Shown here: piece after piece, positions 31,985 to 45,972 of the stretch
Numbering within the stretch: the stretch's first letter is position 1
How the letters are laid out: every line of letters begins with the position of its first letter
Assembly (NCBI GenBank): GCA_041674545.1
Contig: JBAYVO010000001.1
Coordinates: 89,057 to 153,056 of the forward strand
DNA length: 64,000 nt
From: Candidatus Nanopelagicales bacterium
Lineage (GTDB): Bacteria > Actinomycetota > Actinomycetes > S36-B12 > UBA10799
Direction: 5' to 3'
Program-made: the position numbers and the translations under genes
The notes under the pieces: generated by a model
What the model saw: the letters and a program-made list of their open reading frames with translations, nothing else
Databases searched by the model: none
Told to the model about the DNA's origin: nothing

Positions 31985-32743
31985 TTAGGTCAGCTTGGTC
32001 TTCAAGGTCGCCAGCTGCTGAATCGGACGTGCAACGCGGTTGCGATTACGCTCGCGATCCGCTGCAGCGCCGTCCTTCCACGGCAAACCCGGCCATGGTC
32101 CATGTCCGAACTTGACCTGACCCCAACGGCGAAGCTGCTCACCATCGGTCAGCAGCACCCACGACTTACCGGTGCGATCACAGGTGTCGCGCCACGCTGG
32201 AGTGCCCACCTCGAACTCGATCTCCTGGCCGACATACCAGACCTGACCGTTGGAAGTGAACCCGTCCTCGCGGACGTGAATGATCACCGTGTCGCCGGGA
32301 GCCGGGTCGATCGGAGGCGGGCCCACAGCCCACGACGCGACCTCCGCACCAGAGCCGGACAGAGCGGCCCGTGCTGCCGCCAGTTCGGCTTCCAGACGCA
32401 GCACCAGCTCGGTCTGGGCGGTGTTAGGGACCGGACCCGCCGGGAGGTTGTCCGAGCCAACGGTGTCGTTCGCCAAATTCTCCACATTGGTGTTGGAGAT
32501 GACCACAGACTCCGACACATTCGAAGTAGTGACCGGCGGGACGTTGATGCCCGGGGTCGCATCGATCACCGGCTCGGGGTCCGGCGGAACGATGTAGGCG
32601 GACAGATCATCATCGGGCTCAGCCGACGCCACCTCATCGGGGGCATCCGCAGGAGGGATCGCTCCCTTGGTCTTAGGAGTGCGCCCCGATGGGGGTGGCG
32701 GGCTGGACCGACGGATAGCAGGCTTCTCGTCTTCAGATGGCAT
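31985..32743 (-). CDS. Hypothetical protein with a Pro-rich N-terminus (252 aa)
   Basis: ORF on the coding strand with an AAGGAG RBS. No recognisable motif. Confidence 0.55.
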   Translation of the reverse strand: MPSEDEKPAIRRSSPPPPSGRTPKTKGAIPPADAPDEVASAEPDDDLSAYIVPPDPEPVIDATPGINVPPVTTSNVSESVVISNTNVENLANDTVGSDNLPAGPVPNTAQTELVLRLEAELAAARAALSGSGAEVASWAVGPPPIDPAPGDTVIIHVREDGFTSNGQVWYVGQEIEFEVGTPAWRDTCDRTGKSWVLLTDGEQLRRWGQVKFGHGPWPGLPWKDGAAADRERNRNRVARPIQQLATLKTKLT

Positions 32744-33369: not shown

Positions 33370-33393
33370 GTAAGTGTCTTCGACCTAGAACGC

Positions 33394-33421
33394 AAAAAAG
33401 GGACCGGATTCGTCCGGTCCC
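33394..33421 (-). terminator. Rho-independent terminator
   Basis: Minus strand reads GGGACCGGA-CGAA-TCCGGTCCC followed by TTTTTTG: a perfect 9-bp GC-rich stem, a tetraloop and a T6 tract. Confidence 0.85.
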
Positions 33422-33424
33422 TTC

Positions 33425-33661
33425 TCAGCTGGCCTCCGCATCCGGGACCAACCCCGTCGCCTGCCAGTGCGCCAACTGACCCTCGGTCCAGCCGAGCCAC
33501 ACGTGCAGCGGCTCACCGATGGTCTTCTTACAACGACGCCATTCTCGTTCTAGAAGTCTGACTTCCTCCGCGTTCAACTGACGAACCGGATAATTCTTCT
33601 CATGAACGGAATTGAGTCTACGTGCTACTTCCTGCGGAGTTTCCGGGGGAAGAAAACTCAT
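33425..33661 (-). CDS. Hypothetical protein (78 aa)
   Basis: Last gene of the small-gene island. ATG 33661 forms an ATGA overlap with the upstream micro-ORF stop. Confidence 0.5.
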   Translation of the reverse strand: MSFLPPETPQEVARRLNSVHEKNYPVRQLNAEEVRLLEREWRRCKKTIGEPLHVWLGWTEGQLAHWQATGLVPDAEAS

Positions 33662-33741
33662 CCGCACTTACAAAAAAGGTAAGGACGTCCACACTTTGTG
33701 CAGTTACCGCGCTGAGGCGGACGGTAGAAATACCAGAACAT
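33658..33741 (-). CDS. 27-aa Cys-rich micro-protein MFWYFYRPPQRGNCTKCGRPYLFCKCG
   Basis: Below the track cutoff. AAGGAG lies 4 nt (AGTC) before ATG 33741, and its stop overlaps the next ATG (ATGA). Contains a CxxC...CxC pattern. Confidence 0.45.
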   Translation of the reverse strand: MFWYFYRPPQRGNCTKCGRPYLFCKCG

Positions 33742-33750
33742 GACTCTCCT

Positions 33751-34005
33751 TTAGTAGGGAGGATAGTAGCCACAATTCATACCAATGTTAAACATGCACT
33801 TACAGCAAAGATACCGCGTCAGTTCGTGAAAATGCCGAGGGCCTGATTGATCACCAATCTTGTGTGTAGCCGGGCCTCCGCACACGCAGATTTCTTCTAC
33901 CGCCGAGATCGAGATGGAATGGGGAGCGTAGTCCACATTGACCCGATCCGGTTCCGCCCACGGCTGGCCCAACGAAGCCAACAAATCATCCATCTCACCC
34001 GGCAC
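33751..34005 (-). CDS. Cys-rich hypothetical protein (84 aa)
   Basis: TAAAGGAG junction upstream of GTG 34005. Cys pattern CVCGG...CCKC...C. Confidence 0.5.
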   Translation of the reverse strand: MPGEMDDLLASLGQPWAEPDRVNVDYAPHSISISAVEEICVCGGPATHKIGDQSGPRHFHELTRYLCCKCMFNIGMNCGYYPPY

Positions 34006-34016
34006 GATGCGCTCCT

Positions 34017-34202
34017 TTAGTCTGTCCGACCATCAAGAGGCTGATGCACTTCCTGCCACTCGATGGATCCGTCAGGACTGACTTCGCCTTCAGAAACCGG
34101 ACCACACTGACAGTCATTCACAGGATCAACATCATGCTCTACAAGATCGTCCAACGGCACGATATGCACCCCGTGGATGGGATCATCTACTCGCGCCCAC
34201 AT
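34017..34202 (-). CDS. Hypothetical protein (61 aa)
   Basis: Start moved to ATG 34202, giving a TGATG overlap with the upstream stop. Confidence 0.45.
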   Translation of the reverse strand: MWARVDDPIHGVHIVPLDDLVEHDVDPVNDCQCGPVSEGEVSPDGSIEWQEVHQPLDGRTD

Positions 34203-34579
34203 CAGGACGGTCCCAGCAGAAGCGAGATCGCATCTCGAAGCTCCGGGCACCCGGTCATCTCAGAAGACGCGCTCAACTTCTTGCCGTCCGTGACCTCGAT
34301 ACCCCGACCATACTTGCAGTCGCAGGTACGGTTCCCGAACGACCGGTACGCGCACACCTCCCGACGTACCGCCTCCAGCGACGCCGCCAGTTCCACGCGC
34401 CTATCGTATTCCGGCGCGAGCACATGCTGGGCCATCAACGGAGCCCATTCGGGATGTCCAGCACGCTGCATCTCGTAGAGAGCGACGTTCAGCGCCCGCT
34501 TCGCGTCATCGACCTCAACGTTGGTCTTCAGATAGACCCGCTGCAGGTTGGCCCGCGCTTCCTCAACCGACATCGACAT
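34202..34579 (-). CDS. Hypothetical protein (125 aa)
   Basis: GGGAGGA RBS before ATG 34579. No motif recognised. Confidence 0.55.
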   Translation of the reverse strand: MSMSVEEARANLQRVYLKTNVEVDDAKRALNVALYEMQRAGHPEWAPLMAQHVLAPEYDRRVELAASLEAVRREVCAYRSFGNRTCDCKYGRGIEVTDGKKLSASSEMTGCPELRDAISLLLGPS

Positions 34580-34943
34580 TCGAATCCTCCCAACCCGGAG
34601 ACATGCACGTCGTCCACGACGCCTTGGTCAACGACCCGTCCTTAGAACGCCGGACCAGAGAATCCCGGCCGTTCCACGTCACGCACGGCTCGACTACCAC
34701 GCACCGATCACCAGAGCAGATGGTCACCACCTCGTTGCGCACCGGCATCCAGTACTCAGACTCGACGTCGCCCCGATGCAGCAACCACTGCAGGCGCCAC
34801 CAGTACTCCAACAGCGGGAGAACGATGCCTCGGCGCCAGAACAGATACACCAGCATGAACGGAACGCGAACGGCCCAGAACCGCGTCGACACCGAGCCGT
34901 CCGTAGGCTTCTTGATGTACAAACGAATCGTCGAAAGTTCCAT
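34563..34943 (-). CDS. Hypothetical protein with an N-terminal hydrophobic segment (126 aa)
   Basis: TGATG coupling with the DUF397 gene. Contains RFWAVRVPFMLVYLFW. Confidence 0.5.
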   Translation of the reverse strand: MELSTIRLYIKKPTDGSVSTRFWAVRVPFMLVYLFWRRGIVLPLLEYWWRLQWLLHRGDVESEYWMPVRNEVVTICSGDRCVVVEPCVTWNGRDSLVRRSKDGSLTKASWTTCMSPGWEDSNVDVG

Positions 34944-35140
34944 CAGATGACCGGATCAAACTCTTCCGGATCGAACTCACCCAGCTTCACGCCACGAATG
35001 AATGCGCTCCACTCGCTCCGGGTAAATCGCAACTTCGGGCCGTCCGACTCCTTGGTGTCGCTGATGAGGAACACAGCGTCCTCGCGCGAGAACTCGACGT
35101 CGACACAGTCACCGGACGGGTTCGAAAAGGACGACTTCAC
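34943..35140 (-). CDS. DUF397 (BldB-like) domain protein
   Basis: VKSSFSNPSGDCVDVEF...VFLISDTKESDGPKLRFTRSEWSAFIRGVKLGEFD matches the actinomycete DUF397 pattern W/xKSSxS..G.CVEV...RDSK.P.GP.L.F....W..F...VK.GEFD. Start is GTG 35140 with a GTGA overlap. Confidence 0.85.
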   Translation of the reverse strand: MKSSFSNPSGDCVDVEFSREDAVFLISDTKESDGPKLRFTRSEWSAFIRGVKLGEFDPEEFDPVI

Positions 35141-35349
35141 GGCTTGGTGCGCTCCTTCCATGCCTTCTTGAACAGATCCCAGTTCACCCGCTGCCGATCG
35201 ATCCATGGCGCCGCGTCCCAGGCGTCCACGATCTGCTCGTACAACTCTTCACACGAGTTCAGATCTTCAGCTCGCTCTGCGGCGTCGTACTTCTCATTCA
35301 ACTCCAGCCACTCCTGCAGAGACGGCGGGACTGCCAAATCAGCGCTCAT
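35137..35349 (-). CDS. Hypothetical protein (70 aa)
   Basis: Start is preceded by a junction motif copy (35347-35364). Confidence 0.55.
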   Translation of the reverse strand: MSADLAVPPSLQEWLELNEKYDAAERAEDLNSCEELYEQIVDAWDAAPWIDRQRVNWDLFKKAWKERTKP

Positions 35350-35364
35350 GCAGGTGTTCTACCC
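35347..35364 (-). repeat. Start-associated junction motif copy
   Basis: Minus strand GGGTAGAACACCTGCATG. The TAG is the stop of 35359..35565 and the ATG is the start of 35137..35349. Confidence 0.8.
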
Positions 35365-35565
35365 GCTAGTGAGCTGCCAGAGCCCCCACAAAGACAGGCC
35401 AAAGGCCACCACCGTGATCACCGGCAGCAAAACCCACGCCCACTGCCCCGCCTCATCCGAGATGCAGAACAGAATCACCCACAACATCCACACGAGGAAC
35501 GCCGCAGCGACCGCACCAAAAAAGACTCCGAGCAACTCCAAAAACGGAGGAAGCGTGATCGTCAC
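35359..35565 (-). CDS. Small membrane protein (2 TM)
   Basis: 68 aa: LGVFFGAVAAAFLVWMLWVILF...WAWVLLPVITVVAFGLSLWGLW. GTGA overlap at the start. Confidence 0.55.
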   Translation of the reverse strand: MTITLPPFLELLGVFFGAVAAAFLVWMLWVILFCISDEAGQWAWVLLPVITVVAFGLSLWGLWQLTSG

Positions 35566-36224
35566 GTCCGGATCACCACGGTATTGCGCACCTCAACACT
35601 GTTAGTGCGGCCACGTTGCGCGCGAGAATCCGCCTTGACCGACGACGACTGTGTCTGAGTCTCCGAAGGGAAACGACCGGACAGCAGATCCATCATTTTC
35701 TCGACATTGTTCTCAACAATGTGAGTGTAATCCACACCATCCAAAACCAGCAGAATGGCAAGCTTGCCGTCACGAAGTGCGTAGATCAGCTCTACAGAGT
35801 CGGTGAACAGACTCAGAGCCCAATAGCCGCGCTCGTGACCCACTTCAAGAGACTCGCCAAACCCGGCCGACAGATGCTCATACGCCTTCTGAATGAGCTT
35901 GGGGGCATCTTCGATATTTGCGCCAGTCGGAAAGTCGCGAGGAAGACTTTGACGGTAAGTAGGGTCGCGCCACAACTTACCGAAATCGTCATCCAGCCAC
36001 ACAGTAGGACGCTGCTTACCATCAACAGACAGCTTCACGTTCTTGAGGAACGTGCGTCCGCTCGGACTGACCTTGAAAAACGCCTCGTTGCGGACCCGGC
36101 CGTTATTGGCGATCAGCGTCCAGCCGCGCGTCACCTTAATGACCTCGGGGACCTCCCCCGTCTGTGCAACAACACGTTCGATGTATTCCTGCACAGACGG
36201 GGGATAGATCGAAACATCAGCCAC
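35562..36224 (-). CDS. Hypothetical protein (220 aa), abuts the nucleotidyltransferase gene
   Basis: GTG 36224 follows directly after the upstream TGA. No motif recognised. Confidence 0.6.
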   Translation of the reverse strand: MADVSIYPPSVQEYIERVVAQTGEVPEVIKVTRGWTLIANNGRVRNEAFFKVSPSGRTFLKNVKLSVDGKQRPTVWLDDDFGKLWRDPTYRQSLPRDFPTGANIEDAPKLIQKAYEHLSAGFGESLEVGHERGYWALSLFTDSVELIYALRDGKLAILLVLDGVDYTHIVENNVEKMMDLLSGRFPSETQTQSSSVKADSRAQRGRTNSVEVRNTVVIRT

Positions 36225-37037
36225 TCAGCACCAGCCCCAGTACTTCTTCAGCGTGTCGATGACCCACGCATCGATCTTCTGGTAGTCCGGCTTCTCCGGG
36301 AGCGGACCGGCACCGGACTTCATCAGATCAAAGATCTCCGCTTCCAGCGCTTCCGCGCGACCCAGAGCTTCCTGCTTGGTGTACTTACCCACACGAAGGT
36401 CCCGGATCCAGGTGAGATCCGGTTCCGGGATCGGAAGCGTGATCGAACCGGTCTTGAGCAGCTCCACGCCCTGCACGCCGAGACGCACCATGTGCCCCGC
36501 GAACTTCGTATCGAAACCGTACTGCTCCCTGATATCCGCACGGCCCTGGTTGCGAGTACCGCCCGAGCGCAGGCCCAGCAGACCCTCACGCTGCGAACGC
36601 AGATATCCCGCGTACTTGAACCCGTTGCTCCGCGAAAGAAAAAGATGCCGGTTCTCTCGCAGCGAGCGGCCCCACTGATTTGCAAACAGCACATGCTCCT
36701 GGGGGACAAACAGCGGAAGCTGCATTGTCGGATTCCCCTGTGCCACCAGATCGACATAATGCCGAAGATTGTAAGCAACAAAGTCCAGGTCACCCGGACC
36801 GGAGCACACACCCTCGGGCTTGGTGCGCCAGGTGTACGTCTTGGTGTTCACCGACCCCAGAACCTGACGAGGGTGCTCCAGCCACACACCCATCTCATCG
36901 CGGTCGTCGGTTCCCTCGATCGACGTGCCATGCACACCCGAGCCCGCCAGCACGCGCAGGATCATGCCCTCGCGTGCGACCTTCTGGCGCGGGCTGTCCG
37001 GAAGGATCGGAATAACTTCGTTGAATTTAGCGCTCAC
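36225..37037 (-). CDS. Pol-beta-superfamily nucleotidyltransferase (predicted)
   Basis: LAGSGVHGTSIEGTDDRDEMGV fits the G-S-x9-13-D-x-D NTase motif. 270 aa. Confidence 0.6.
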   Translation of the reverse strand: MSAKFNEVIPILPDSPRQKVAREGMILRVLAGSGVHGTSIEGTDDRDEMGVWLEHPRQVLGSVNTKTYTWRTKPEGVCSGPGDLDFVAYNLRHYVDLVAQGNPTMQLPLFVPQEHVLFANQWGRSLRENRHLFLSRSNGFKYAGYLRSQREGLLGLRSGGTRNQGRADIREQYGFDTKFAGHMVRLGVQGVELLKTGSITLPIPEPDLTWIRDLRVGKYTKQEALGRAEALEAEIFDLMKSGAGPLPEKPDYQKIDAWVIDTLKKYWGWC

Positions 37038-37052
37038 GTAAATCTTCTACTC
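37035..37052 (-). repeat. Start-associated junction motif copy (degenerate)
   Basis: Minus strand GAGTAGAAGATTTACGTG, with the same 9-nt TAG-to-start spacing. Precedes the nucleotidyltransferase gene. Confidence 0.5.
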
Positions 37053-37515
37053 ATTCCTTAGGAGGATCGCAGAACTCCGGAGGCGGGTCCGTCACCCACG
37101 CCGGAGTGATATCCCGGTCCTCGAACTGAGGATTGCGCGTCCACACGCCGCCGGGCTTACGCTCCCACGCCTGCTCGATGTAGCACCCGACCGACGACAT
37201 CGACTCGCCCGCACCACGACACTCATGCCACGGCGGATCACCGTAGCGGAAGTTCTCCGTCAGGTAATCGAGGTTCCACTCCGGCGGAAGCTCATCGCCT
37301 TCACGGAAGCTCCGGTACCGGTCATAGCGTGTCCAGCCCTCACCGACCGACATGCGCAGAGCACACGCCTGACACTCGATGCGAGCCAGCACGGCCCACG
37401 TGTCGTAGACGCCCAGCATCCGAGGATGGAAAGCCGCGTAACGCGGAACCCCGTAGCCATCGTGCCACAACGGGGTTCCGGCAATCTCGCGAATATCCTG
37501 ATAGTCAGGAAGCAT
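37051..37515 (-). CDS. Hypothetical protein (154 aa)
   Basis: Start is preceded by a junction motif copy (37513-37530). Confidence 0.6.
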   Translation of the reverse strand: MLPDYQDIREIAGTPLWHDGYGVPRYAAFHPRMLGVYDTWAVLARIECQACALRMSVGEGWTRYDRYRSFREGDELPPEWNLDYLTENFRYGDPPWHECRGAGESMSSVGCYIEQAWERKPGGVWTRNPQFEDRDITPAWVTDPPPEFCDPPKE

Positions 37516-37530
37516 GTCAGAGTCCTACCC
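37513..37530 (-). repeat. Start-associated junction motif copy
   Basis: Minus strand GGGTAGGACTCTGACATG. Confidence 0.8.
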
Positions 37531-37965
37531 CGGGAGAAGACGCCTTGAGAACAAGTCCTTCAGCTCAAGGCGCGCCTGCGCTTTCCACTGCTCCTCGGTG
37601 CACGGGGAATACTCACCCCACACCTTCTGACCGAGCAGCCGACAATCGTAGTCCGCCTCGGTGGGATCGTTGTCGATCGAATAGCCCTCCCGCTCCTGAT
37701 AGCTCGGAGCGGGATCCCGGAACGGGCAGTCAGGACAGAACGAACCCGGACCGTAGTCCGGGGACATCGTCGAACCGTTGAGCAGCCACTGCAAAGCCGG
37801 ATAGAAATGCTCGTCAGCAGAGTCCGCCATCTCAGCGAGAGTATCGCCGTAGAGAGACAGCGTGCACTCAGAGCACGACAGTCCCCAAAACACCTGACCG
37901 GTGTAACGGCGGTAGGAACGCAGCTTCGAGCGGTGCACCAACGGCATCGCCCCGCGCTCAGACAT
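37525..37965 (-). CDS. Cys-rich hypothetical protein (146 aa)
   Basis: ORF on the coding strand. Its TAG stop lies inside a junction motif. Confidence 0.55.
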   Translation of the reverse strand: MSERGAMPLVHRSKLRSYRRYTGQVFWGLSCSECTLSLYGDTLAEMADSADEHFYPALQWLLNGSTMSPDYGPGSFCPDCPFRDPAPSYQEREGYSIDNDPTEADYDCRLLGQKVWGEYSPCTEEQWKAQARLELKDLFSRRLLPG

Positions 37966-38158
37966 CAGAAAGTCCCGGAACCTTTACGCCCCAGCACCTA
38001 GCTACCTTGCGAAGCACCGTCGTCGCATAAATGACGGACTCCTGCGTGTTGTACCCCGCCTGCGAGTAAATACGAATCAGATGATGAACTGCCTCGTGGA
38101 GAGCGTCTTCATCCACCGAAACCGGCAGACACACCATGACATCCTCGACGTTCTCCAC
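37958..38158 (-). CDS. Hypothetical protein (66 aa)
   Basis: Start moved to GTG 38158, with GGAGG 8 nt upstream, just after the upstream TAG. Confidence 0.45.
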   Translation of the reverse strand: MENVEDVMVCLPVSVDEDALHEAVHHLIRIYSQAGYNTQESVIYATTVLRKVARCWGVKVPGLSDV

Positions 38159-38160
38159 GA

Positions 38161-38364
38161 CTACACCTCCGGAGGGAACGCCACGTCCCAACACGACGGG
38201 CAGATACCTGACATCAGCTGCTCACGACGGTCCACACTCAGATCACTCAGAGCTTCCTGAATATGTGCACCGTGCTTCCACCGGTTGTACCCGATCTGAT
38301 CGACCTCGAACTCGTCGACCTTGTGACACGTCGGGCACTCGGAACTTACCAACAATACGGACAT
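38161..38364 (-). CDS. Zn-ribbon protein (CPTC...CPSC)
   Basis: 67 aa with two CxxC pairs. TGACATG junction. Confidence 0.55.
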   Translation of the reverse strand: MSVLLVSSECPTCHKVDEFEVDQIGYNRWKHGAHIQEALSDLSVDRREQLMSGICPSCWDVAFPPEV

Positions 38365-38365
38365 G

Positions 38366-38695
38366 TCACTTACCCACCGGACGCTTGCCTCCGCAAAACT
38401 GATCCCACTCGGTCATCCGCAGCAGCGGCGTCGCGCCACCACCGCTGTCGCTACGGCCCGACGACGGCGTGGCGAAACCCAGGCCATCGACACACACCTT
38501 GGCGATGTTCGGGTACAGGTCTGCGTTGCGATACACCTCGATGTAGTCCACGTCGCTAACCACATCGACCGGAGAGCCCTCGTGGCCGCCCCGGTCACCG
38601 AGCTGCTCCGCACACCCGGTCAGCAGCGCGAGCGACAGCCCAGCGCCGACCAGAACACCCACAACACGCTTAGTCCTCACGGGGATCCCTTTCAC
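38366..38695 (-). CDS. Lipoprotein
   Basis: Signal peptide with lipobox: VLVGAGLSLALLTGC. GTG 38695 is preceded by a variant junction motif. Confidence 0.7.
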   Translation of the reverse strand: MKGIPVRTKRVVGVLVGAGLSLALLTGCAEQLGDRGGHEGSPVDVVSDVDYIEVYRNADLYPNIAKVCVDGLGFATPSSGRSDSGGGATPLLRMTEWDQFCGGKRPVGK

Positions 38696-38710
38696 AACGA
38701 AGTTCTACCG
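38693..38710 (-). repeat. Start-associated junction motif copy (variant, GTG start)
   Basis: Minus strand CGGTAGAACTTCGTTGTG. Precedes the lipoprotein gene. Confidence 0.6.
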
Positions 38711-38860
38711 GGGACGACGCTTCTTGCGGTCGACCACAACAGGCTTAGCAATGCTCAAAATATGCTCAGAAAACTCGCACCCGGGACGGGCGCAGTACCG
38801 CATGCTGCGCTGGGTCAGAAACTTGCCGTGACCACACTCAGGGCATTTCCATGCGCTCAC
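38705..38860 (-). CDS. Zn-ribbon mini-protein (51 aa)
   Basis: GAGGAG RBS, then GTG 38860. Contains KCPECGHGKF...YCARPGCEF. The track's 139-aa version overlaps the exonuclease gene. Confidence 0.5.
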   Translation of the reverse strand: MSAWKCPECGHGKFLTQRSMRYCARPGCEFSEHILSIAKPVVVDRKKRRPR

Positions 38861-38870
38861 GGCACACTCC

Positions 38871-39374
38871 TCAGCGGTCGCCTTCGAGCAGCCGCTCGAA
38901 CGCCTCGACGTTGCCCTTCGCATCGTTGACCGGGTTATGGTCATGCGGGGTCCGACGGTACTTCTTCCATCCCTGCGTGTTCGGGAAGTTGTCCTTGAGC
39001 CCGGCGTAGTAGTCCGAGATCCGACGGCCCGAGTGCCCGAACGGGTTGTCCCGATCAGCACGGTCGAACATGCCCGCGATCCACATGAAGTCGTAGGCAG
39101 GGTTGTCCGACACCAGCACCGCACGCGAACCCTCGGGAAGCACGTTCAGCAGCCACAAGCCGAGATCGATCGACACCTCCTCGTCGGAGGCGACGCGCTC
39201 ACCCACCACGGGAATCGCCGGATTCTCCGGATCCGGGTACGACTCGAACAGCCGACCGTGGAAAGTCTCTCGCGAGGTGAAGTGCACACACCCGAACTCG
39301 GTCAGCGTGCCGTTCACCGGAGACCGGCCCCGCGCTTCGCAGTCTACGAAAATCAGCTTGTCCAGGTATGCCAT
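38871..39374 (-). CDS. DEDDh (DnaQ-like) 3'-5' exonuclease
   Basis: Exo I FVDCEA, Exo II LVSDNPAYDFMW, Exo III HDHNPVNDAKG (H-x4-D). Confidence 0.7.
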   Translation of the reverse strand: MAYLDKLIFVDCEARGRSPVNGTLTEFGCVHFTSRETFHGRLFESYPDPENPAIPVVGERVASDEEVSIDLGLWLLNVLPEGSRAVLVSDNPAYDFMWIAGMFDRADRDNPFGHSGRRISDYYAGLKDNFPNTQGWKKYRRTPHDHNPVNDAKGNVEAFERLLEGDR

Positions 39375-39389
39375 GTCAGTGTTCTACCC
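39372..39389 (-). repeat. Start-associated junction motif copy
   Basis: Minus strand GGGTAGAACACTGACATG. The upstream gene stops at TGA 39391-39393, so this TAG is not a used stop. Confidence 0.8.
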
Positions 39390-39390
39390 G

Positions 39391-39663
39391 TCAGAAAAGA
39401 ACTTTGATGATCCGGGCCAGACACACACCCGGAGGCGGCGAGGGGTTCAGCACGACCACGCGGGCCTCAGACGGGTTGTGCCGGAACGAATTCGCGGGCA
39501 CCAGCACCCAATTGCCCACTCGCGTCGACGTGGGCGCCAGGTAGGTGTAAACCCGGCCCAGCGGGTCGAACTGCACACCGACGGTGAAGTCTTCCTCCGC
39601 CGACGCCATGAACGACACGATCTCCGTATCAGAGATCGTCAGCTCTTCAACGTTGGTAACCAT
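39391..39663 (-). CDS. Hypothetical protein (90 aa)
   Basis: Start is preceded by a junction motif copy (39661-39678). Confidence 0.55.
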   Translation of the reverse strand: MVTNVEELTISDTEIVSFMASAEEDFTVGVQFDPLGRVYTYLAPTSTRVGNWVLVPANSFRHNPSEARVVVLNPSPPPGVCLARIIKVLF

Positions 39664-39678
39664 GTAGGTGTCCTACCC
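39661..39678 (-). repeat. Start-associated junction motif copy
   Basis: Minus strand GGGTAGGACACCTACATG. The upstream gene stops at TGA 39681-39683. Confidence 0.8.
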
Positions 39679-39680
39679 GG

Positions 39681-39914
39681 TCAGTACGCAGTGCCCTGGA
39701 TGTCCAGCCGATGGTCCTCCAGCAGCCGCACACGCTCGCGGAACGAATCGATCGCCGCCTCCACGGTCAGCTCCACCTCGTCAGCGACCAGGGCGTCCGC
39801 AATCTCCTGCAGCTCCCAGCACTCGACGATGATGTCCCACCCATCCTCGTGGTAGCGATGCTCGGCGTAGGCGTAGACAAACTTCGCCAGCTCCATGGGG
39901 GTGTGCTCAGCCAC
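39681..39914 (-). CDS. Hypothetical acidic protein (77 aa)
   Basis: ORF on the coding strand with an 8-nt overlap onto the upstream gene. Confidence 0.5.
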   Translation of the reverse strand: MAEHTPMELAKFVYAYAEHRYHEDGWDIIVECWELQEIADALVADEVELTVEAAIDSFRERVRLLEDHRLDIQGTAY

Positions 39915-40161
39915 GATTCCTCTTCACCCTGTGCGAATCCAACATTTCGCGGTGCTGCTCAGTCCACCAAGCGCGGAACTCACGTGACACCCGCAGAGTC
40001 TCGCCGGTAAAGGCGAAATACCTAGCCTGCTCCCACGTCGGAAAAGCCCAGCCCCGAGACGAACCAACCGGCCGCACGTGCCAAGGCCACGCAGCCGCCT
40101 CCGGAGTGCCGTAACCCTTCTGACCCGGGCGAATCTTGAAAACCTCACACCGCCTAGTCAC
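39907..40161 (-). CDS. Hypothetical basic Trp-rich protein (84 aa)
   Basis: ORF on the coding strand with 8-nt overlaps on both sides. Confidence 0.5.
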   Translation of the reverse strand: MTRRCEVFKIRPGQKGYGTPEAAAWPWHVRPVGSSRGWAFPTWEQARYFAFTGETLRVSREFRAWWTEQHREMLDSHRVKRNRG

Positions 40162-40630
40162 GACGATCCACCTTGTACGTGAAACGCTGCGTCGTACGGA
40201 AATACGCCACAGCCTTCATCATCTCCAGCGCCTGATCCAGATCAACGTGAGCACCCTCCCAGAACGGAGTGCCCATCTGCTCCAGGAGCATCTCGTCCTC
40301 CCCCTCGGGCAGCGGCCACACCCGGAACCGGCCCTCGCGGTCCACGAGCATCATTGCCGCCGCAGGAACAGGAAACGACTGCTCCGCCATCACGCACTCT
40401 CCCGAGAGGTGCGCACCAGATCCCGCGTCGCCAACTTGCCCACGCCCAGCGCCAGCAACAGCCCACCCAGAAACACCGAAACCACCCAGAACGTCAGCCC
40501 GAAGTCCAGCAACGCCCCCGATGAGCGCCACCGCGAACAGCCCCACCCGGATCACCAGACGCAGCACCAGCGTGACCAGCTCATCGAGCGAACGCAGCAG
40601 CGCCTCTTCGCCACTCACCTCAGGCATCAT
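40154..40630 (-). CDS. Hypothetical protein with an N-terminal TM segment (158 aa)
   Basis: Start moved to ATG 40630 (ATGA overlap). Contains LVTLVLRLVIRVGLFAVALIGGVAGL. Confidence 0.5.
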   Translation of the reverse strand: MMPEVSGEEALLRSLDELVTLVLRLVIRVGLFAVALIGGVAGLRADVLGGFGVSGWAVAGAGRGQVGDAGSGAHLSGECVMAEQSFPVPAAAMMLVDREGRFRVWPLPEGEDEMLLEQMGTPFWEGAHVDLDQALEMMKAVAYFRTTQRFTYKVDRRD

Positions 40631-40833
40631 GCACTCCCGAACTGGAACGAAATGAAGCACTCGTCCTCACCGGGAATGAATCCCAGCTCATCGAGCCGAG
40701 CCAACTCCTCAGAAGAGAACAGGCCCGGATCCACGCACACGGTCAGCACGTCATGCTCGCAATGCGTAGGCGACGAAGGGTTAGCGCGCGTACGCATCAG
40801 CAGCAGGATCCCAAGAAGCGCAAGATCGATCAT
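40627..40833 (-). CDS. Hypothetical protein (68 aa)
   Basis: ORF on the coding strand. No motif recognised. Confidence 0.45.
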   Translation of the reverse strand: MIDLALLGILLLMRTRANPSSPTHCEHDVLTVCVDPGLFSSEELARLDELGFIPGEDECFISFQFGSA

Positions 40834-40839
40834 CCATCA

Positions 40840-41055
40840 CTACACCCCAAAGATCATGGTCGTCGCCGGAACACCGGTCAGACCCGTCACGACCAGCGCA
40901 ACCGCGACCGAGCCGATCAACAGCAGCCCGACCGCAGGAAGACACCCGATCTCGCCACCGGAGTCGCGGCGGGCCAGCAGGAAAATCACCGCCACTTCGG
41001 CCAGCGCGAGCACTACACCGCAGATCAGCGCGGTCAACTGGATAGCAGGACTCAT
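40840..41055 (-). CDS. Small membrane protein (3 TM)
   Basis: 71 aa, hydrophobic throughout. Start is preceded by a junction motif copy (41053-41070). Confidence 0.55.
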   Translation of the reverse strand: MSPAIQLTALICGVVLALAEVAVIFLLARRDSGGEIGCLPAVGLLLIGSVAVALVVTGLTGVPATTMIFGV

Positions 41056-41070
41056 GTAGCACTCCTACCC
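41053..41070 (-). repeat. Start-associated junction motif copy
   Basis: Minus strand GGGTAGGAGTGCTACATG. Confidence 0.75.
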
Positions 41071-41223
41071 GAGCAACTTGATCAGTCCCTGCTCAATCAA
41101 CTCATCGAGCAGTGCATCCGCAGACTGCAGGCGCAGATCCGCAGTCAGGTAATCCGGCGGGAAGTAGCTCTCGATCAACGCCACCGCGCATTCACGAACC
41201 GTAAAACCCGAGTAATCAGACAT
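41065..41223 (-). CDS. Hypothetical protein (52 aa) MSDYSGFTVRECAVALIESYF...
   Basis: Below the track cutoff. Bracketed by two junction motif copies; its TAG stop lies inside the downstream copy. Confidence 0.5.
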   Translation of the reverse strand: MSDYSGFTVRECAVALIESYFPPDYLTADLRLQSADALLDELIEQGLIKLLG

Positions 41224-41404
41224 GTCGGTGTCCTACCCGGTAAAGGTCGGGAACGGCCTGATGGAACCCGCGCCACTTCCGGCACCGCGCCGGGAGATGC
41301 TCCACCCAGATACCCGGACCAAAAAACTCCCAAAGAACTCCATCCAGCACGAACACCAGACGGGTGCAGTTCTCGCACGGATCGCAATCATCGAAGTTGC
41401 TCAC
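41216..41404 (-). CDS. Hypothetical Cys-containing protein (62 aa)
   Basis: GTGA overlap at its start. Its 3' end reads through a motif copy. Confidence 0.45.
   Translation of the reverse strand: MSNFDDCDPCENCTRLVFVLDGVLWEFFGPGIWVEHLPARCRKWRGFHQAVPDLYRVGHRHV
41221..41238 (-). repeat. Start-associated junction motif copy
   Basis: Minus strand GGGTAGGACACCGACATG. Confidence 0.8.
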
Positions 41405-41601
41405 TTGCCGAACACCTTTCGATACAACCGCGCCGCCATGTCAGAGACATTGACGTAAATCAACGCCTGGGCGTAGTCGGTATTCTGCGACGCCGGGCGG
41501 GTGAGCAGATCCTCCGGGATGGGCTGATCCGACAGCTCCTGCGCGTACACCTCGTGGATGTCAGACTCATCGACCAGCTGCAGCAGCCACTTGTATCCCA
41601 T
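41401..41601 (-). CDS. Hypothetical protein (66 aa)
   Basis: Start is preceded by a junction motif copy (41599-41616). Confidence 0.5.
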   Translation of the reverse strand: MGYKWLLQLVDESDIHEVYAQELSDQPIPEDLLTRPASQNTDYAQALIYVNVSDMAARLYRKVFGK

Positions 41602-41616
41602 GTCAGGGTTCTACCC
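41599..41616 (-). repeat. Start-associated junction motif copy
   Basis: Minus strand GGGTAGAACCCTGACATG. Confidence 0.8.
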
Positions 41617-41793
41617 CTCCGACGCCTCTTCCCACTCTGCGTAGGAATCGAACAGCGACGGACCCTCACCCGGGAAATCCAGGCCGATGACCGGACCCTC
41701 CACCGAACCATCCGGGCGGATGATGCGCACAATCGTGTACCAGCGATGCACGTCGAACTCGACACGGTCAATCGGACCCTCAATAATCTTCAT
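41611..41793 (-). CDS. Hypothetical protein (60 aa)
   Basis: Start is preceded by a junction motif copy (41791-41808). Confidence 0.5.
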   Translation of the reverse strand: MKIIEGPIDRVEFDVHRWYTIVRIIRPDGSVEGPVIGLDFPGEGPSLFDSYAEWEEASEG

Positions 41794-41808
41794 GTCAGAG
41801 TTCTACCC
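41791..41808 (-). repeat. Start-associated junction motif copy
   Basis: Minus strand GGGTAGAACTCTGACATG. The upstream gene stops at TGA 41795-41797 in another frame. Confidence 0.8.
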
Positions 41809-42130
41809 TAGAGGTGTAGCGATACGCCTGACGCATACGAACTTCCACATTCAGTCGAATGTCAATACGCTGCTGCATAGACGGATAAGAATACTTACCG
41901 CTCATGCCTCTAAAAGTAGTCATCGCAACAGACTGCACCGGAGAGGGGCCCGGAGTAGCGGCCTCCAAATAATTTCCCTTGCGGCTCACGACAGCGTCGA
42001 GCTTCTTACTCCTAGTGACGGCCCAGTCCAAGGCGTCCGCAGCCTCATCAACGCTGACCTGCCACAACACCGCAGCCGCGACCAGTAGGTCACAGGTGCG
42101 GGCAACACGCTCATCTCCCCAACGAGTCAT
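41795..42130 (-). CDS. Hypothetical protein (111 aa)
   Basis: Start is preceded by a junction motif copy (42128-42145). Confidence 0.55.
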   Translation of the reverse strand: MTRWGDERVARTCDLLVAAAVLWQVSVDEAADALDWAVTRSKKLDAVVSRKGNYLEAATPGPSPVQSVAMTTFRGMSGKYSYPSMQQRIDIRLNVEVRMRQAYRYTSRVEL

Positions 42131-42145
42131 GTCAGGGTCCTACCC
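42128..42145 (-). repeat. Start-associated junction motif copy
   Basis: Minus strand GGGTAGGACCCTGACATG. The TAG is the stop of the EndoVII gene. Confidence 0.8.
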
Positions 42146-42973
42146 GTCCAGCGAGGACCGCGCGTGGCGGAGGATGTACTCGTCGAACGCCGCTCCGGAA
42201 ATGTTCATAGTCTCCAACCGACCTAATGTGGTGTTACAGCTGAAACACAGCAGCTGACGAAGACACAAACCGCAGGACTGCCGACCCGGACAACACGCGT
42301 GGTCGTGATCCACAGCCAACCGACGATCACCCGGCGAAGCCCCACAAATGGCACAAACCCACCCCTGAGCATCCGCCATACGTTCATAATCTTCAACAGT
42401 AAGTTTATACAAAAACCAAATTCTACTTACCCAAACCTGATCTAAATAAAGCTCACGCTGATCGTCAGTCATAGAGTCATAACGAACTTTACGTTCAATT
42501 TTACGACAAACTCGGCATACGACCTGATATCCAGATTCGACCGTCTGGTCTTCATAAAAACTAAGCACAGGCTTGCTCTCACCACAGGTAAGACACACCC
42601 GGACGCCATCGACAACCGGGTTTTCCTGATCCTTGATCGAAGGAAGTACATAGTCCGGACCACGCCACTTCTCCGCCTGCTTGGCGTTGGCCTTGCGCTG
42701 CAGCGCGCGGGCACACGGGAGACAGCGTCCGGTAAGACGCCTACCCTCACCGCGATTCTTCTTCACCAGCTGCGCCAGCTCCATCGGAAGCTTCTCCCGG
42801 CACTGCGTGCAGGTGAACTCCGGATCCTCAGGCGTGAGGCCACGGTTGGGCTGACGCTCAGACGGCGTCTGCTTCATGCCAGGGCGGGGGATACCCGGGC
42901 GCCCGGACCCGGGACGAGGAACTCCCTTCCCACCCTTAGACGGCGGACTGCCAACAAAAACTGCGTCTTCCAC
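42140..42973 (-). CDS. Recombination endonuclease VII-family homing-type endonuclease with N-terminal Zn ribbons
   Basis: LAVDHDHACCPGRQSCGLCLRQLLCFSCNTTLG is the EndoVII signature. Several upstream CxxC pairs. First gene after the capsid terminator, with a low-GC patch. Confidence 0.8.
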   Translation of the reverse strand: MEDAVFVGSPPSKGGKGVPRPGSGRPGIPRPGMKQTPSERQPNRGLTPEDPEFTCTQCREKLPMELAQLVKKNRGEGRRLTGRCLPCARALQRKANAKQAEKWRGPDYVLPSIKDQENPVVDGVRVCLTCGESKPVLSFYEDQTVESGYQVVCRVCRKIERKVRYDSMTDDQRELYLDQVWVSRIWFLYKLTVEDYERMADAQGWVCAICGASPGDRRLAVDHDHACCPGRQSCGLCLRQLLCFSCNTTLGRLETMNISGAAFDEYILRHARSSLDG

Positions 42974-42984
42974 AAAACCTCCAG

Positions 42985-43033
42985 AAACGACTGAGAGGGC
43001 AGAACCCCTTTCACAGGAGTCCTACCCTCTCAG
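42985..43033 (-). terminator. Stem-loop terminator downstream of the major capsid gene
   Basis: Minus strand reads CTGAGAGGGTAGGAC-(13 nt loop)-GTTCTGCCCTCTCAG, a 15-bp stem with two G-U pairs, followed by TCGTTTCTGG. The 5' arm contains a GGGTAGGAC motif copy. Confidence 0.7.
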
Positions 43034-43102
43034 AGGCTAGAAGATTTTGCCAGTGTTTTATTTTGGCCTTCTAGATGACCTTCAGATCAACGTTTCCGCA
43101 GG

Positions 43103-44125
43103 TCAGTTGGCGACGCGGGCGACGAGCACCTGCTCGGGGCGATAGATCACCGGGAGGAAGTGTTGTTCGATGAGATACTGGCGACTGGAAGGGTCTTTCT
43201 CCTTCCAGGTCTTAGCAAATCGACCTGTAAAGCCACGAGGGGCCTCATCGTCGGCAGTCGGGCCAAGCATGAACTCCATGGGACGGTTGTCCGAGAGGTT
43301 GGCAAAAATAATCTTGCCGTCACCCAGGAACATCGTCTCATTACCAGCCGCGTCCTCGTAGACCGACTCGGTGGTCGTCCAGTTGAGGCCCATGAAGCCC
43401 GGCATGGTGCCCGACGAGTAGTACTCGTCCTTCATGCGGTCCGACATCAGGCCAGCGGCGTTACCGTCGGTGGCGAAGGCGTCGAAGATCAGCGACAGCG
43501 TCTGCTCGGTGCAGAACGCCTCGCGGACCGGGACCTGACCATCACGCTGGATCAGGCGCTTCCACGCCCGGATGTCAGCGATGATCTGCGAAGCCGATGC
43601 GCTGGCCCAGAGGGTCGACGCGGTGGGCTTGTGCGAAGCCGAGAACTTGTAGTCGATCGACGCCTGAACGTCGTCGTAGTCGAACACCAGCTGACCCTGG
43701 AGAGCCTGCCACGCGCAGTACTCCATGAAGTTGTCAAAGCGGGTGTTCAGGTCGTTGATCTCACGGAGAACAGCGGCCTCGGCGTTCTTGGCGGCAAGCG
43801 ACCCTGGCTCACGGATCCAGTGGATCGTGGTCGGCTCGAATACCTTCTTCTCGCGAAGGTAGACGAACGCGGCGCTTTCCTGGCTCCGACCGAGCCGAGG
43901 CACGATGTGCGCCTCGGAGTTCGGAACGTTGGGCTTCGCCACGCTCCGGGAACCCTTGATCACGTCCCACTTCGCCACCGGGTAAGGCCACGGCTGCTTG
44001 GAGAGACGGTTGACCAGGATCAGGTTCTCCGGAGCCTTCATCTTCTCGACCACGCCCATAAGCACGGTCGGCTCCAGCAAACTGATGTCCGGCAACTCTG
44101 TCACCTTTCTCGCTGACGCAGTCAC
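43103..44125 (-). CDS. Major capsid protein, lambda gpE-like
   Basis: 340 aa. C-terminus GRFAKTWKEKDPSSRQYLIEQHFLPVIYRPEQVLVARV parallels lambda gpE RYPKNWVTTGDPAREFTMIQSAPLMLLADPDEFVSVQL. Paired with a gpD-like gene upstream. Confidence 0.85.
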   Translation of the reverse strand: MTASARKVTELPDISLLEPTVLMGVVEKMKAPENLILVNRLSKQPWPYPVAKWDVIKGSRSVAKPNVPNSEAHIVPRLGRSQESAAFVYLREKKVFEPTTIHWIREPGSLAAKNAEAAVLREINDLNTRFDNFMEYCAWQALQGQLVFDYDDVQASIDYKFSASHKPTASTLWASASASQIIADIRAWKRLIQRDGQVPVREAFCTEQTLSLIFDAFATDGNAAGLMSDRMKDEYYSSGTMPGFMGLNWTTTESVYEDAAGNETMFLGDGKIIFANLSDNRPMEFMLGPTADDEAPRGFTGRFAKTWKEKDPSSRQYLIEQHFLPVIYRPEQVLVARVAN

Positions 44126-44698: not shown

Positions 44699-45898
44699 TC
44701 AGGAAGTCAGGTACTGCGCGGCAGGACCGTCAGACGCGGTGAGACGAGCAAGCTCGGCCTCGACGTCGATCTCCTGCTTCTGGTGAGCCTCAGCGTCAGG
44801 AGCGACACCCTTCTCGACCGACAGAGCCACGATCGGCTCCTCGGGGAGCAGGGCGTCGAAGGTCTCCCGGTTCGACAGGGCCAGGTTCAGGTACGTCTCA
44901 CGCTTGGCCGGGACGATGAAGCCCCGGTCGATGAGACCGTCGATCTCGGTCTCGACGTTGCGCTTCTCCAGAGCGAGAATCCGCTCACCGGCAGCGTCGA
45001 AGTTGCTCGACAACTTGACGTTCTGCTGAGCAAGCTCAGACACAGCGTCAACGAGCGTGTCGGTGTCGATTTCGCCATCCTTGTTCGAGAGAGCGACCTC
45101 GGCGTCGGTACCGGTCAGAGCAGCCTTGACCTTGGCGGCCAGCTCCTCGACGTCCGGCTTCGCGGCCAGCTCCTCCTGGGCGGCAGACAGCGCAGTCTCG
45201 GCAGTCTCCGTCTTGGTCTTGAAGGTCGCCAGCTGCTCCTGCAGCGCGGTGACATCCAGCTCGTGCTCGGCCTTCAACTCGGCCAGAATCTCATCCAGCG
45301 TGCGGGGCACCGCAGCCTCCCTCTGATCGCTTGTCGCACTCATCTCAAGGAGCGCGGGGCTGCCTTCGTATTCGGACGACGCCGCAACGATCTCCTCATA
45401 GGGATCCAGCTGGGTCACGTATGGACGGTTCGTGACAGCTACGTGTAAAAGCGTCGGACCAACCTTCTGGTTGGTAGTTGTGTCGGTGTAGTTCAAATGC
45501 ATGAACGCCGACGCACCCAAAAGGGTCTTACCGAAATCATCGGCACTCTTACGCGCATCTACGTGTGCGTAGATCTTGCCGTTCTTATCATCGACCTCGA
45601 TGTCGAGAACTTCACCGAGATTTGCACCAGGATTCTCGACATGCTCATTCTGGTCATTGGCAAGAGGGACCTGAACAATGGGACAGACATTGGCGTCAAA
45701 GTTGCCCTTAAGAGCATCGCCAAATGCCTTGTCAATCTTAATCTTGGTCTTGGTGACCGGATGAATCAACTCTCCATAGGAGAGGATGTGCTTCCGGAAC
45801 ACCCGTCCCTGCTTCTGGCGGGACAGAGCGACAGAGTCGTTCATCTCTGTCCAGTCCGCATCCGGTGACGGCGCAATTACCGTATACAGATCGCCCAT
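44699..45898 (-). CDS. Capsid scaffolding protein (possible protease-scaffold fusion, Mu gpI-like layout)
   Basis: 399 aa: an ~190-aa globular N-terminus followed by a long Glu/Ala/Leu coiled coil. Positioned between MuF and the decoration/capsid genes. Confidence 0.6.
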   Translation of the reverse strand: MGDLYTVIAPSPDADWTEMNDSVALSRQKQGRVFRKHILSYGELIHPVTKTKIKIDKAFGDALKGNFDANVCPIVQVPLANDQNEHVENPGANLGEVLDIEVDDKNGKIYAHVDARKSADDFGKTLLGASAFMHLNYTDTTTNQKVGPTLLHVAVTNRPYVTQLDPYEEIVAASSEYEGSPALLEMSATSDQREAAVPRTLDEILAELKAEHELDVTALQEQLATFKTKTETAETALSAAQEELAAKPDVEELAAKVKAALTGTDAEVALSNKDGEIDTDTLVDAVSELAQQNVKLSSNFDAAGERILALEKRNVETEIDGLIDRGFIVPAKRETYLNLALSNRETFDALLPEEPIVALSVEKGVAPDAEAHQKQEIDVEAELARLTASDGPAAQYLTS

Positions 45899-45934
45899 GT
45901 CCGAGGTCTTCGGCAGCTACCAGATTCCAAACAT

Positions 45935-45972
45935 GAAAAAGCGCCCGGGATCGTCATGAACCCGGGCGCTTT
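45935..45972 (-). terminator. Rho-independent terminator
   Basis: Minus strand reads AAAGCGCCCGGG-TTCATGACGAT-CCCGGGCGCTTT followed by TTC: a 12-bp perfect stem running into a T-rich tract. Confidence 0.85.

Follow-up and report, generated by a model that had tools for sequence, protein, structure and literature searches.

In siphovirus-type phages, the structural operons are commonly regarded as a stable, syntenic backbone. The morons of lambdoid phages, known from Hendrix and colleagues, each add one extra gene with its own promoter and terminator, and in the classical cases their nucleotide composition departs from that of the adjacent genes. In Cluster A mycobacteriophages, stoperators are bound by the lysogeny repressor and keep no fixed distance to a start codon. 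The closest described systems are the hyperplastic regions (HPRs) of T4-type phages with their promoter-early stem-loop (PeSL) cassettes (Arbiol et al. 2010, PMC2839356; Comeau et al. 2014, PMC4122927) and the start-associated sequences (SAS, GGGATAGGAGCCC) of Cluster K mycobacteriophages (Pope et al. 2011, PMC3203893, where the stoperators are also mentioned), the function of which was still unknown in 2025 (PMC12699233). Here we describe a block of 29 mostly small open reading frames (ORFs), referred to below as the island, that separates the capsid gene from the neck genes in a 64,000-nucleotide stretch of a phage contig (the window), as well as an 18-nt motif found at many of its gene junctions. 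We consider, with a probability of roughly 0.65, that the island is a lineage-specific, fast-changing array of about 29 small accessory genes of non-structural type, located at an insertion hotspot in a 186-kb actinobacterial phage.

The window corresponds to positions 15497-79496 of a 186,198-bp metagenomic contig (ENA ERZ27247358 k141_2474284), which is clearly a phage genome, as it contains genes for a terminase, a Mu-type portal, a capsid protein and a 3292-aa tape-measure protein. The proteins of this contig are labelled "MAG: Candidatus Nanopelagicales bacterium" at NCBI; such a bacterial label on a 186-kb phage contig is probably a binning artefact. Including 10 kb upstream of the window (L190) and 7.3 kb of a non-structural arm (L191), about 81 kb were examined. 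For comparison, 160 related loci were collected from IMG/VR and metagenomes, each spanning only about 10 kb on either side of the capsid gene, and gap statistics were based on the 57 IMG/VR loci containing the capsid gene and the neck gene together. The nearest cultured relative was Microbacterium phage Magritte (133 kb), and megablast of the region against 50,697 GenBank phage records gave no match. Every recognisable gene of the window was on the minus strand, where the capsid gene was followed by the island, two membrane-protein genes, neck genes, and genes for a glycosyltransferase, the major tail protein, the tape-measure protein, tail proteins and a helicase.

In the window, the distance from the capsid gene to the first clade-conserved neck gene was 10.36 kb, the largest seen, whereas the 57 related loci had a median distance of 540 bp, the extremes being 19 bp and 8.4 kb. 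In Magritte, the corresponding gene (gp23) was located 818 bp after the capsid gene, and the gap held one reverse-strand gene. Relatives with longer gaps carried at this site 1) a collagen/CBM5_12 protein and two WD40 propellers (L020, 4016-12900), 2) EndoVII and a UDP-glucose dehydrogenase (L073, 10475-17200), and 3) EndoVII and two GNT-I-like glycosyltransferases (L029, 9107-13800). The varied, unrelated cargo and the range of gap sizes indicate that the capsid-to-neck junction is a recurrent insertion hotspot in this clade, and the sequence comparison supports the view that the island is an insertion into an ancestral order with the capsid gene beside the neck genes. EndoVII is encoded in the window by the first gene of the island. 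About 90 distinct relatives were compared, and in 20 of them, scattered across 53-92% capsid identity, a homologue stood directly 3′ of the capsid gene; it was the sole gene of the gap in several of these carriers. Such sporadic presence at one conserved site is the pattern expected of a homing-type nuclease gene.

The first-pass annotation had claimed some 30 mostly small genes splitting head from neck genes and had proposed a search for presence/absence polymorphism in related phages. The former agrees with the 29 ORFs, 18 of them shorter than 100 aa, and with the synteny of Magritte; the latter was found, with the site empty or nearly so in most relatives and the gene sets of near relatives differing. 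The capsid protein of the window was 86-92% identical to those of L069, L082, L004 and L083. At the same site, L069 (86% identical) carried an 8.1-kb array of about 21 ORFs, and in L082 (92% identical) the array exceeded 10 kb and comprised 29 ORFs or more. When the window was compared with L069, nucleotide homology ended at 43131, in the 3′ end of the capsid gene, and restarted at 33360, just beyond the terminator that closes the island; the L069 array was closed by an equivalent terminator followed by the same membrane-protein gene. With L082, the exonuclease gene alone was in common at the DNA level, the homology running from 6 nt inside the gene, just past the motif, to the stop codon. Counterparts were detected for 5 of the 29 island genes in the L069 array and for 3 of the 29 in that of L082; EndoVII was found in both, the exonuclease and the ORF at 39681 in L082, and the ORFs at 39907, 35137 and 33425 in L069, whereas matches to the DUF397 protein were confined to distant loci elsewhere. 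The common genes occupied different positions in different arrays, and 21 of the 29 ORFs had no homologue in any of the 160 related loci, a count that refers to the capsid neighbourhood only and not to whole genomes. These comparisons at the sequence level support the island being polymorphic among relatives.

The 29 ORFs were arranged head to tail between 42973 and 33425 with gaps of at most 17 nt, except for one of 83 nt. When genes were called independently on a Logan contig derived from this phage, which covers the island from 40627 onwards, the gene set was the same with two kinds of exception, namely one Zn-ribbon ORF that was not called and three or four shorter starts. The G+C content of the island was 59.5%, against 59.9% for the rest of the window, and no paralogues were found within the island or elsewhere in the 81 kb examined. 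No PHROG family was matched by 22 of the 29 ORFs; the other seven did match, with a named function only for EndoVII and the nucleotidyltransferase. When 27 concatenated island proteins were compared by tblastn with the GenBank phage records, only 11 weak matches involving 4 proteins were obtained, and the 220-aa ORF matched only itself in a search of 5.8 billion proteins. EndoVII was assigned by PF02945 (E = 1e-16, 60.9 bits; curated cutoff 23.6) and PHROG_2633, endonuclease VII (E = 6e-29), and it retained the catalytic region (DHDH...N) as AVDHDHACC...CNTTLG. The 154-aa protein belonged to a family of 16 members (15 homologues and the island protein), with distant homologues in Thermus phages P23-45 and P74-26; its AlphaFold2 model was confident (pLDDT 87, pTM 0.81), a Foldseek search of this model against PDB gave no significant match (best E = 0.49), and a homologue in another phage was located in a typical non-structural small-gene arm. 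The accessory, non-structural character of the island genes is thereby upheld.

Most of the gene products named in the first-pass annotation could be recovered. EndoVII, the nucleotidyltransferase and the DUF397 protein were verified by profile matches (PF02945, PF10127 and PF04149, respectively), and the lipoprotein by inspection of its lipobox. The DEDDh exonuclease had matches that were consistent in kind and weak, including Pfam Rv2179c-like (E = 3e-4, below cutoff), a PADLOC exonuclease model (2e-6) and PDB 7t2s, a 3′-5′ exonuclease (3e-4). CxxC motifs were present in 7 island proteins, as had been noted for the many CxxC mini-proteins. Hydropathy indicated three membrane proteins and a lipoprotein signal peptide within the island, so that the announced five or more transmembrane mini-proteins are reached only if the two genes after the terminator are counted.

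The island had also been described as terminator-bounded, with a 15-bp-stem hairpin (42985-43033) on the capsid side and a textbook terminator at 33394-33421 on the other. The terminator was borne out: its GC-rich stem of 9 bp, extending to 14 bp, encloses a 4-nt loop and is followed by U6. It was not flagged by a consensus terminator scan, and we think that the scan missed it by extending the stem through the T run via A-T and G-T pairs. The hairpin after the capsid gene is also real, although it spans 42991-43033 with 19 pairs in the stem. It begins 70 nt past the capsid stop codon, its 5′ arm contains GGGTAGGAC and its 3′ arm the inverted copy, and a moderately U-rich tail (UCGUUUCU) leads to the Shine-Dalgarno sequence of the first island gene; most equivalents in the clade had no U tract. 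Nearly all members of the clade, including Magritte and relatives with a gap of less than 110 bp, had a long GC-rich hairpin immediately behind the capsid stop codon. Since it is present in relatives without any island, the hairpin is not an island boundary, and the block lacks a terminator pair of its own; its near-universal occurrence indicates that it is an ancestral feature of the capsid gene (mRNA 3′ end or attenuator), downstream of which the island grew. A second textbook terminator, with a 12-bp GC-rich stem and U5, was found in the head-gene block just upstream of the scaffold gene (about 45925-45960, minus strand), which indicates that terminators are not peculiar to the island and that the late region is split into several units.

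This organisation bears on the possibility that the island is an autonomous, separately timed transcription unit with its own promoter and a terminator at each end, in effect a giant moron in the late operon. A strong intrinsic terminator closing the block, a very stable hairpin at its 5′ end, an A+T-rich spacer of 69 nt upstream of this hairpin and a cis motif common to non-structural and not to structural genes would all fit such a unit. However, across the clade the 5′ hairpin is a feature of the capsid gene, and the distances from the hairpin to the first island start codon (17 nt) and from the U tract of the terminator to the next ATG (24 nt) are such that an independent promoter cannot sit inside either boundary. 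The spacer is the only possible place for an island promoter, and a promoter scan found no sigma-70-like site in 43034-43102. Furthermore, the neck genes are essential and lie beyond the terminator, so that transcription must pass it unless a very compact promoter overlaps it, and the G+C content of the island equals that of the genome. An autonomous unit is therefore unlikely in our estimation.

Analysis of the gene junctions revealed a motif with the core GGTAGRAC, which occurred 11 times in the window, all on the minus (coding) strand, against 2.05 copies expected, and no shuffle reached 11. Of the 11 copies, ten fell within 35356-43026; the capsid hairpin contained one of these and the island the other nine. 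The full junction was GGGTAGRACNCYGACATG, i.e. G-GGTAGRAC-N6-ATG (18 nt), and in 6 of 10 copies the embedded TAG was the stop codon of the upstream gene. For a larger sample, copies were pooled from four genomes, comprising the window, the extension of its own contig, L069, L162 (belonging to the L069 phage), L082 and L004. Exactly 6 nt separated the motif from a start codon (24 ATG and 3 GTG) in 27 of the 35 coding-strand copies; among these 27, G was present at -15 in 23, and a pyrimidine at -1 and a purine at +1 in all, giving the consensus GGGTAGRACNCYGAC. No reverse-strand copy was found in L069, L082 or L162. In the window, L083, L069, L004 and L084, the capsid hairpin consisted of a motif copy and its inverted partner, which was not the case in L082.

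The motif had been regarded as private to the block. It is indeed enriched there and absent from the neighbouring structural genes, neither the structural genes (about 45 kb) nor the 10 kb upstream of the window containing a copy, but three to four copies were present in the 7.3 kb beyond the ribonucleotide reductase gene on the same contig, and three after the helicase gene of the L069 phage. This recurrence in non-structural arms shows that the motif is not restricted to the island. The helicase loci were found with an alignment as the query, whereas a single-protein query yielded no viral loci. Gaps at motif junctions ranged from an 8-nt overlap to 17 nt. An ATG start was used by 9 of 10 motif genes and by 24 of 51 other genes, and a gene preceded by the motif in one genome could instead have a plain Shine-Dalgarno sequence in another. 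No stem-loop was detected in the motif and no inverted repeats were detected upstream of its copies; a mini-hairpin within the motif (GGGU-AGG-ACCC) was considered and rejected on inspection, since variant copies break the pairing. The exact 18-mer occurred four times in IMG/VR, each as a single match.

A related element was noticed at the starts of late genes. ARRAC at -11 to -7 preceded 15 of 98 gene starts, compared with at most 2 at any other offset. This broader pattern takes in CGAAGAC-N6, which was located before the ATG or GTG of the terminase gene (59785-59791), the post-terminator gene (33376-33382) and the gene starting at 6624 (6631-6637), with a CGAAGAC-N7 variant at the scaffold gene (45906-45912). 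CGAAGAC-N6/N7-ATG followed both intrinsic terminators and was conserved in L069 (about 18410), and its geometry was that of GGTAGRAC-N6-ATG. CGAAGAC itself was not enriched in the window (20 copies, 14.4 expected), only its start-proximal placement being noteworthy.

It could be argued that the motif functions as a -10-like element in promoters of leaderless mRNAs, in which case the array would be a string of single-gene mini-units and CGAAGAC-N6-ATG would mark late units. The hexamer TAGRAC occupies -12 to -7 relative to the A of the ATG, with T-12 and A-11 invariant and G at -14 and -13, and the constant pyrimidine at -1 and purine at +1, the preference for ATG and the fixed offset of ARRAC are all compatible with transcription starting at the start codon; moreover, the conserved CGAAGAC elements after both terminators leave no room for a leadered promoter. 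On the other hand, position -7 is always C, whereas housekeeping sigma factors need T at -7 in sigma-70-type -10 elements. Neither does the motif have a conserved -35 region upstream, and motif genes keep a moderate anti-Shine-Dalgarno pairing (median -6.5 kcal/mol, compared with -7.9 kcal/mol for genes outside the island). The frequent use of the embedded TAG as the upstream stop codon would rather fit translational coupling. We hence regard the leaderless-promoter explanation as doubtful.

Alternatively, the motif might serve mainly as a recombination joint, a minimal analogue of the T4-type PeSLs, with the turnover explained by single-gene cassette swapping. The same 18-nt junction stands beside unrelated genes in four genomes, common genes change position from array to array, the exonuclease homology with L082 has ends close to the motif and at the stop codon, and PeSL-mediated shuffling has been documented in T4-type HPRs (PMC2839356, PMC4122927). 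Nevertheless, 18 nt with about 12 conserved is very short for homologous recombination, and breakpoints are not resolvable at this divergence. The occurrence of one gene with the motif in one genome and a Shine-Dalgarno sequence in another further indicates that the motif does not travel with the cassette, so that a primary role in recombination appears quite improbable.

The contents had been called typical of accessory or counter-defence loci, of which the accessory part is upheld and the counter-defence part has found no positive evidence. A dedicated counter-defence (anti-immunity) island would be consistent with many small, fast-evolving genes lacking homologues, with the nuclease, nucleotidyltransferase and exonuclease, and with a weak PHROG match of the EndoVII N-terminus to a Lar-like restriction-alleviation family (E = 2e-5). 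The defence-system screen that had been suggested was unproductive, since no characterised anti-defence family was matched in Pfam, PHROGs or PADLOC, the only PADLOC match was to a generic exonuclease model and Pfam and PHROGs returned nothing specific. As 22 of the 29 ORFs match no PHROG and small genes lacking homologues are just as characteristic of non-structural phage arms in general, we think it distinctly unlikely that the island is dedicated to counter-defence. Least probable of all is that the array is a gene-cassette system, in which the 18-nt junction would be both an expression signal and the joint for single-gene exchange between co-infecting relatives and EndoVII, acting on the adjacent 19-bp palindrome made of two inverted motif copies, would keep the site recombination-prone; if true, a structural operon would here contain a cassette array analogous, in minimal form, to those of the PeSL or integron type.

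If the island is an accessory array at an insertion hotspot, as we favour, its closely packed genes would be transcribed together on the late strand in a single polycistronic unit, which transcription might enter through the capsid hairpin acting as an attenuator or from a promoter in the 69-nt spacer upstream. The motif would then govern initiation of individual genes, maybe as a SAS-like translation signal, a function as a -10-like element for leaderless mRNAs being less likely. With the essential neck genes starting 24 nt further on, the closing terminator would have to be leaky or overlapped by a compact promoter. The nuclease gene may also have founded the site in the manner of a homing element, or it may keep the site recombination-prone. 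Several points weigh against this explanation. The relatives share about 75% nucleotide identity in conserved genes and are too diverged for recombination breakpoints to be mapped, and the lack of homologues means absence from the approximately 10-kb capsid flanks, not from the entire genome of a relative. No sigma-70-like promoter was found, the scan being at background level, but promoters of another type may be in use in this phage. A part of the nuclease in making the hotspot is deduced solely from its position and patchy distribution, and timing, promoter and strength of both stem-loops are likewise inferred.

Table 1. Positions of the island genes, junction motifs, boundary elements and flanking genes in the window.
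Feature	Positions	Strand	Remarks
EndoVII / HNH-type nuclease, 277 aa, island gene 1	42140-42973	-	GTG start; N-terminal CxxC repeats
ORF, 111 aa	41795-42130	-	motif before start; no Pfam, PHROG or related-locus match
ORF, 60 aa	41611-41793	-	motif before start; no Pfam, PHROG or related-locus match
ORF, 66 aa	41401-41601	-	motif before start; no Pfam, PHROG or related-locus match
ORF, 62 aa	41216-41404	-	CxxC-containing
ORF, 52 aa	41065-41223	-	motif before start
ORF, 71 aa, membrane protein	40840-41055	-	hydropathy; degenerate motif GGGTAGGAG before start
ORF, 68 aa	40627-40833	-	
ORF, 168 aa	40154-40660	-	157 aa in Logan-contig gene call; one predicted transmembrane segment
ORF, 84 aa	39907-40161	-	homologue in L069 island, 40% identical
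ORF, 77 aa	39681-39914	-	homologues in L082 island and Brevundimonas jumbo phages
ORF, 90 aa	39391-39663	-	motif before start
Tentative DEDDh-type 3′-5′ exonuclease, 167 aa	38871-39374	-	motif before start; 68% identical homologue in L082
Possible Zn-ribbon ORF, ~60-69 aa	38705-38914	-	start uncertain; absent from Logan-contig gene call
Lipoprotein, 109 aa	38366-38695	-	104 aa in Logan-contig gene call; lipobox LLTGC by inspection; GTG start after motif
ORF, 67 aa	38161-38364	-	two CxxC motifs; PHROG_20898 E = 2e-8; weak match in Actinomycetia phage DSL-LC01
ORF, 78 aa	37958-38194	-	
ORF, 146 aa	37525-37965	-	two CxxC motifs
ORF, 154 aa	37051-37515	-	Cys-containing; motif before start; PHROG_27600
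RlaP-type nucleotidyltransferase, 270 aa	36225-37037	-	PF10127 E = 6e-19; PHROG_388 E = 4e-53
ORF, 220 aa	35562-36224	-	singleton
ORF, 68 aa, membrane protein	35359-35565	-	hydropathy
ORF, 70 aa	35137-35349	-	motif before start; 52% identical homologue in L069
DUF397 protein, 87 aa	34943-35206	-	65 aa in Logan-contig gene call; PF04149 E = 1e-14
ORF, 126 aa	34563-34943	-	
ORF, 125 aa	34202-34579	-	
ORF, 77 aa	34017-34250	-	61 aa in Logan-contig gene call; PHROG_2864 E = 4e-10
ORF, 84 aa	33751-34005	-	Cys-rich
ORF, 80 aa, last of island	33425-33667	-	39% identical homologue in the same place in L069
Junction motif GGGTAGGACCCTGACATG	42128-42145	-	TAG is the EndoVII stop codon
Junction motif	41791-41808	-	
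Junction motif	41599-41616	-	
Junction motif	41221-41238	-	
Junction motif, degenerate	41053-41070	-	GGGTAGGAG
Junction motif	39661-39678	-	
Junction motif	39372-39389	-	
Junction motif	38693-38710	-	GTG start
Junction motif	37513-37530	-	
Junction motif	35347-35364	-	
Motif copy near helicase gene	4420-4427	-	~53 nt upstream of helicase start, off the usual 6-nt distance; same place in L069 phage (L162 9945)
Hairpin after capsid gene	42991-43033	-	19-bp stem including G-U pairs; -43.1 kcal/mol; z = -6.8; flagged by terminator scan
Spacer, capsid stop to hairpin	43034-43102	-	69 nt, A+T-rich
Intrinsic terminator closing array	33394-33421	-	GGGACCGGA-CGAA-TCCGGTCCC then TTTTTT; z = -5.05
Membrane-protein gene, 60 aa	33187-33369	-	ATG 24 nt past terminator; CGAAGAC-N6 before start; L069 nucleotide homology restarts here
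Membrane-protein gene, 118 aa	32764-33120	-	four predicted transmembrane segments; 79% identical in L069
First clade-conserved gene after capsid gene	31985-32743	-	homologue of Magritte gp23; downstream edge of hotspot
Terminase gene	57883-59778	-	
Mu-type portal gene	56241-57866	-	
ORF, 3121 aa	46876-56241	-	NUDIX match; portal-scaffold interval; patchy similarity to Magritte
Scaffold gene	44699-45898	-	
Major capsid protein gene	43103-44125	-	upstream flank of island; 58% aa identity to Magritte gp21 (annotated major capsid protein)
Tape-measure gene, 3292 aa	16237-26115	-	

Outside the island, a 274-aa HNH_3-type gene (27802-28626, minus strand) was located between the glycosyltransferase and 89-aa genes and the major tail gene; it had no homologue among the IMG/VR related loci and looks like another mobile insertion within the structural module. 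Genes for a sortase-domain protein and a collagen-repeat protein were found immediately upstream of the terminase gene (60486-61079 and 61730-62413, respectively, minus strand). The length of the tape-measure protein implies a very long tail. Scans of the window detected no tRNA genes and no Rfam families, and neither an integrase nor a repressor or other lysogeny genes were seen in the approximately 81 kb examined.

The locus illustrates that one junction of the structural backbone can host from 0 to about 30 genes depending on the lineage, with almost entirely different sets in near relatives, which makes it a natural landing pad for accessory genes. The approximately 22 ORFs without a family match constitute a compact candidate set for host-takeover or anti-defence screens. 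In addition, the question of SAS function has been open since 2011 (PMC3203893), and the rigid spacing of the motif described here (27 of 35 copies at 6 nt) is suited to a clean test of a translation signal versus a leaderless promoter.

Like lambdoid morons, the island is extra DNA between genes that are adjacent in relatives, is in the orientation of the late operon and has a terminator at its end, but it comprises 29 genes instead of one, shows no compositional difference, and its own promoter was not detected. With Cluster A stoperators, the motif shares the occurrence as many short asymmetric sites in one orientation relative to transcription, located at junctions and overlapping stop codons; it differs in its fixed distance to the start codon, and no repressor is known here. 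The likeness to T4-type HPRs is closer in that 1) small, non-essential-looking genes, mostly without homologues, lie between conserved core blocks (the flanks are kept in at least 57 relatives), 2) the content differs sharply between close relatives, and 3) a repeated short intergenic element punctuates the region. The element is, however, an 18-nt motif 6 nt before the start, whereas a PeSL combines a sigma-70 promoter with a stem-loop; the site is the capsid-neck interval of a siphovirus-type actinobacterial phage; and, as to breakpoints at the element, one compatible case (the exonuclease gene of L082) was found here, the relatives being too diverged.

The motif resembles the Cluster K SAS in being asymmetric and in a single orientation immediately upstream of start codons, in preferring ATG (24 of 27 copies, compared with 80 of 93 for SAS), in being confined to non-structural genes, in its conservation beyond 16S rRNA pairing, in an embedded TAG that can be the stop codon of the upstream gene, and in a common core, GGG(A)TAGGA(G)CC. 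It is distinguished by the sequence GGGTAGRAC in place of the SAS consensus, as GGGTAGRACNCYGAC exceeds the SAS limit of 2 mismatches though the layout is similar; by its rigid 6-nt spacing, compared with 3-7 nt; and by tight junctions of at most 17 nt, compared with gaps of more than 50 bp. The 17-bp upstream inverted repeats of extended SAS were not seen here, the only inverted copy being that of the capsid hairpin, and the host phage of roughly 186 kb is unrelated to Cluster K. The lack of a promoter-plus-stem-loop element, the different consensus and the tight junctions indicate that the block is not a member of the T4-type HPR/PeSL or SAS class, although it resembles both in behaviour. 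By analogy, the island is best described as a counterpart of hyperplastic regions that lies within the structural module, and its motif may be a second and independent case of start-associated sequences, found in phages that have no relationship to Cluster K, with a geometry stricter than that of SAS and a related element at the starts of late-gene units.

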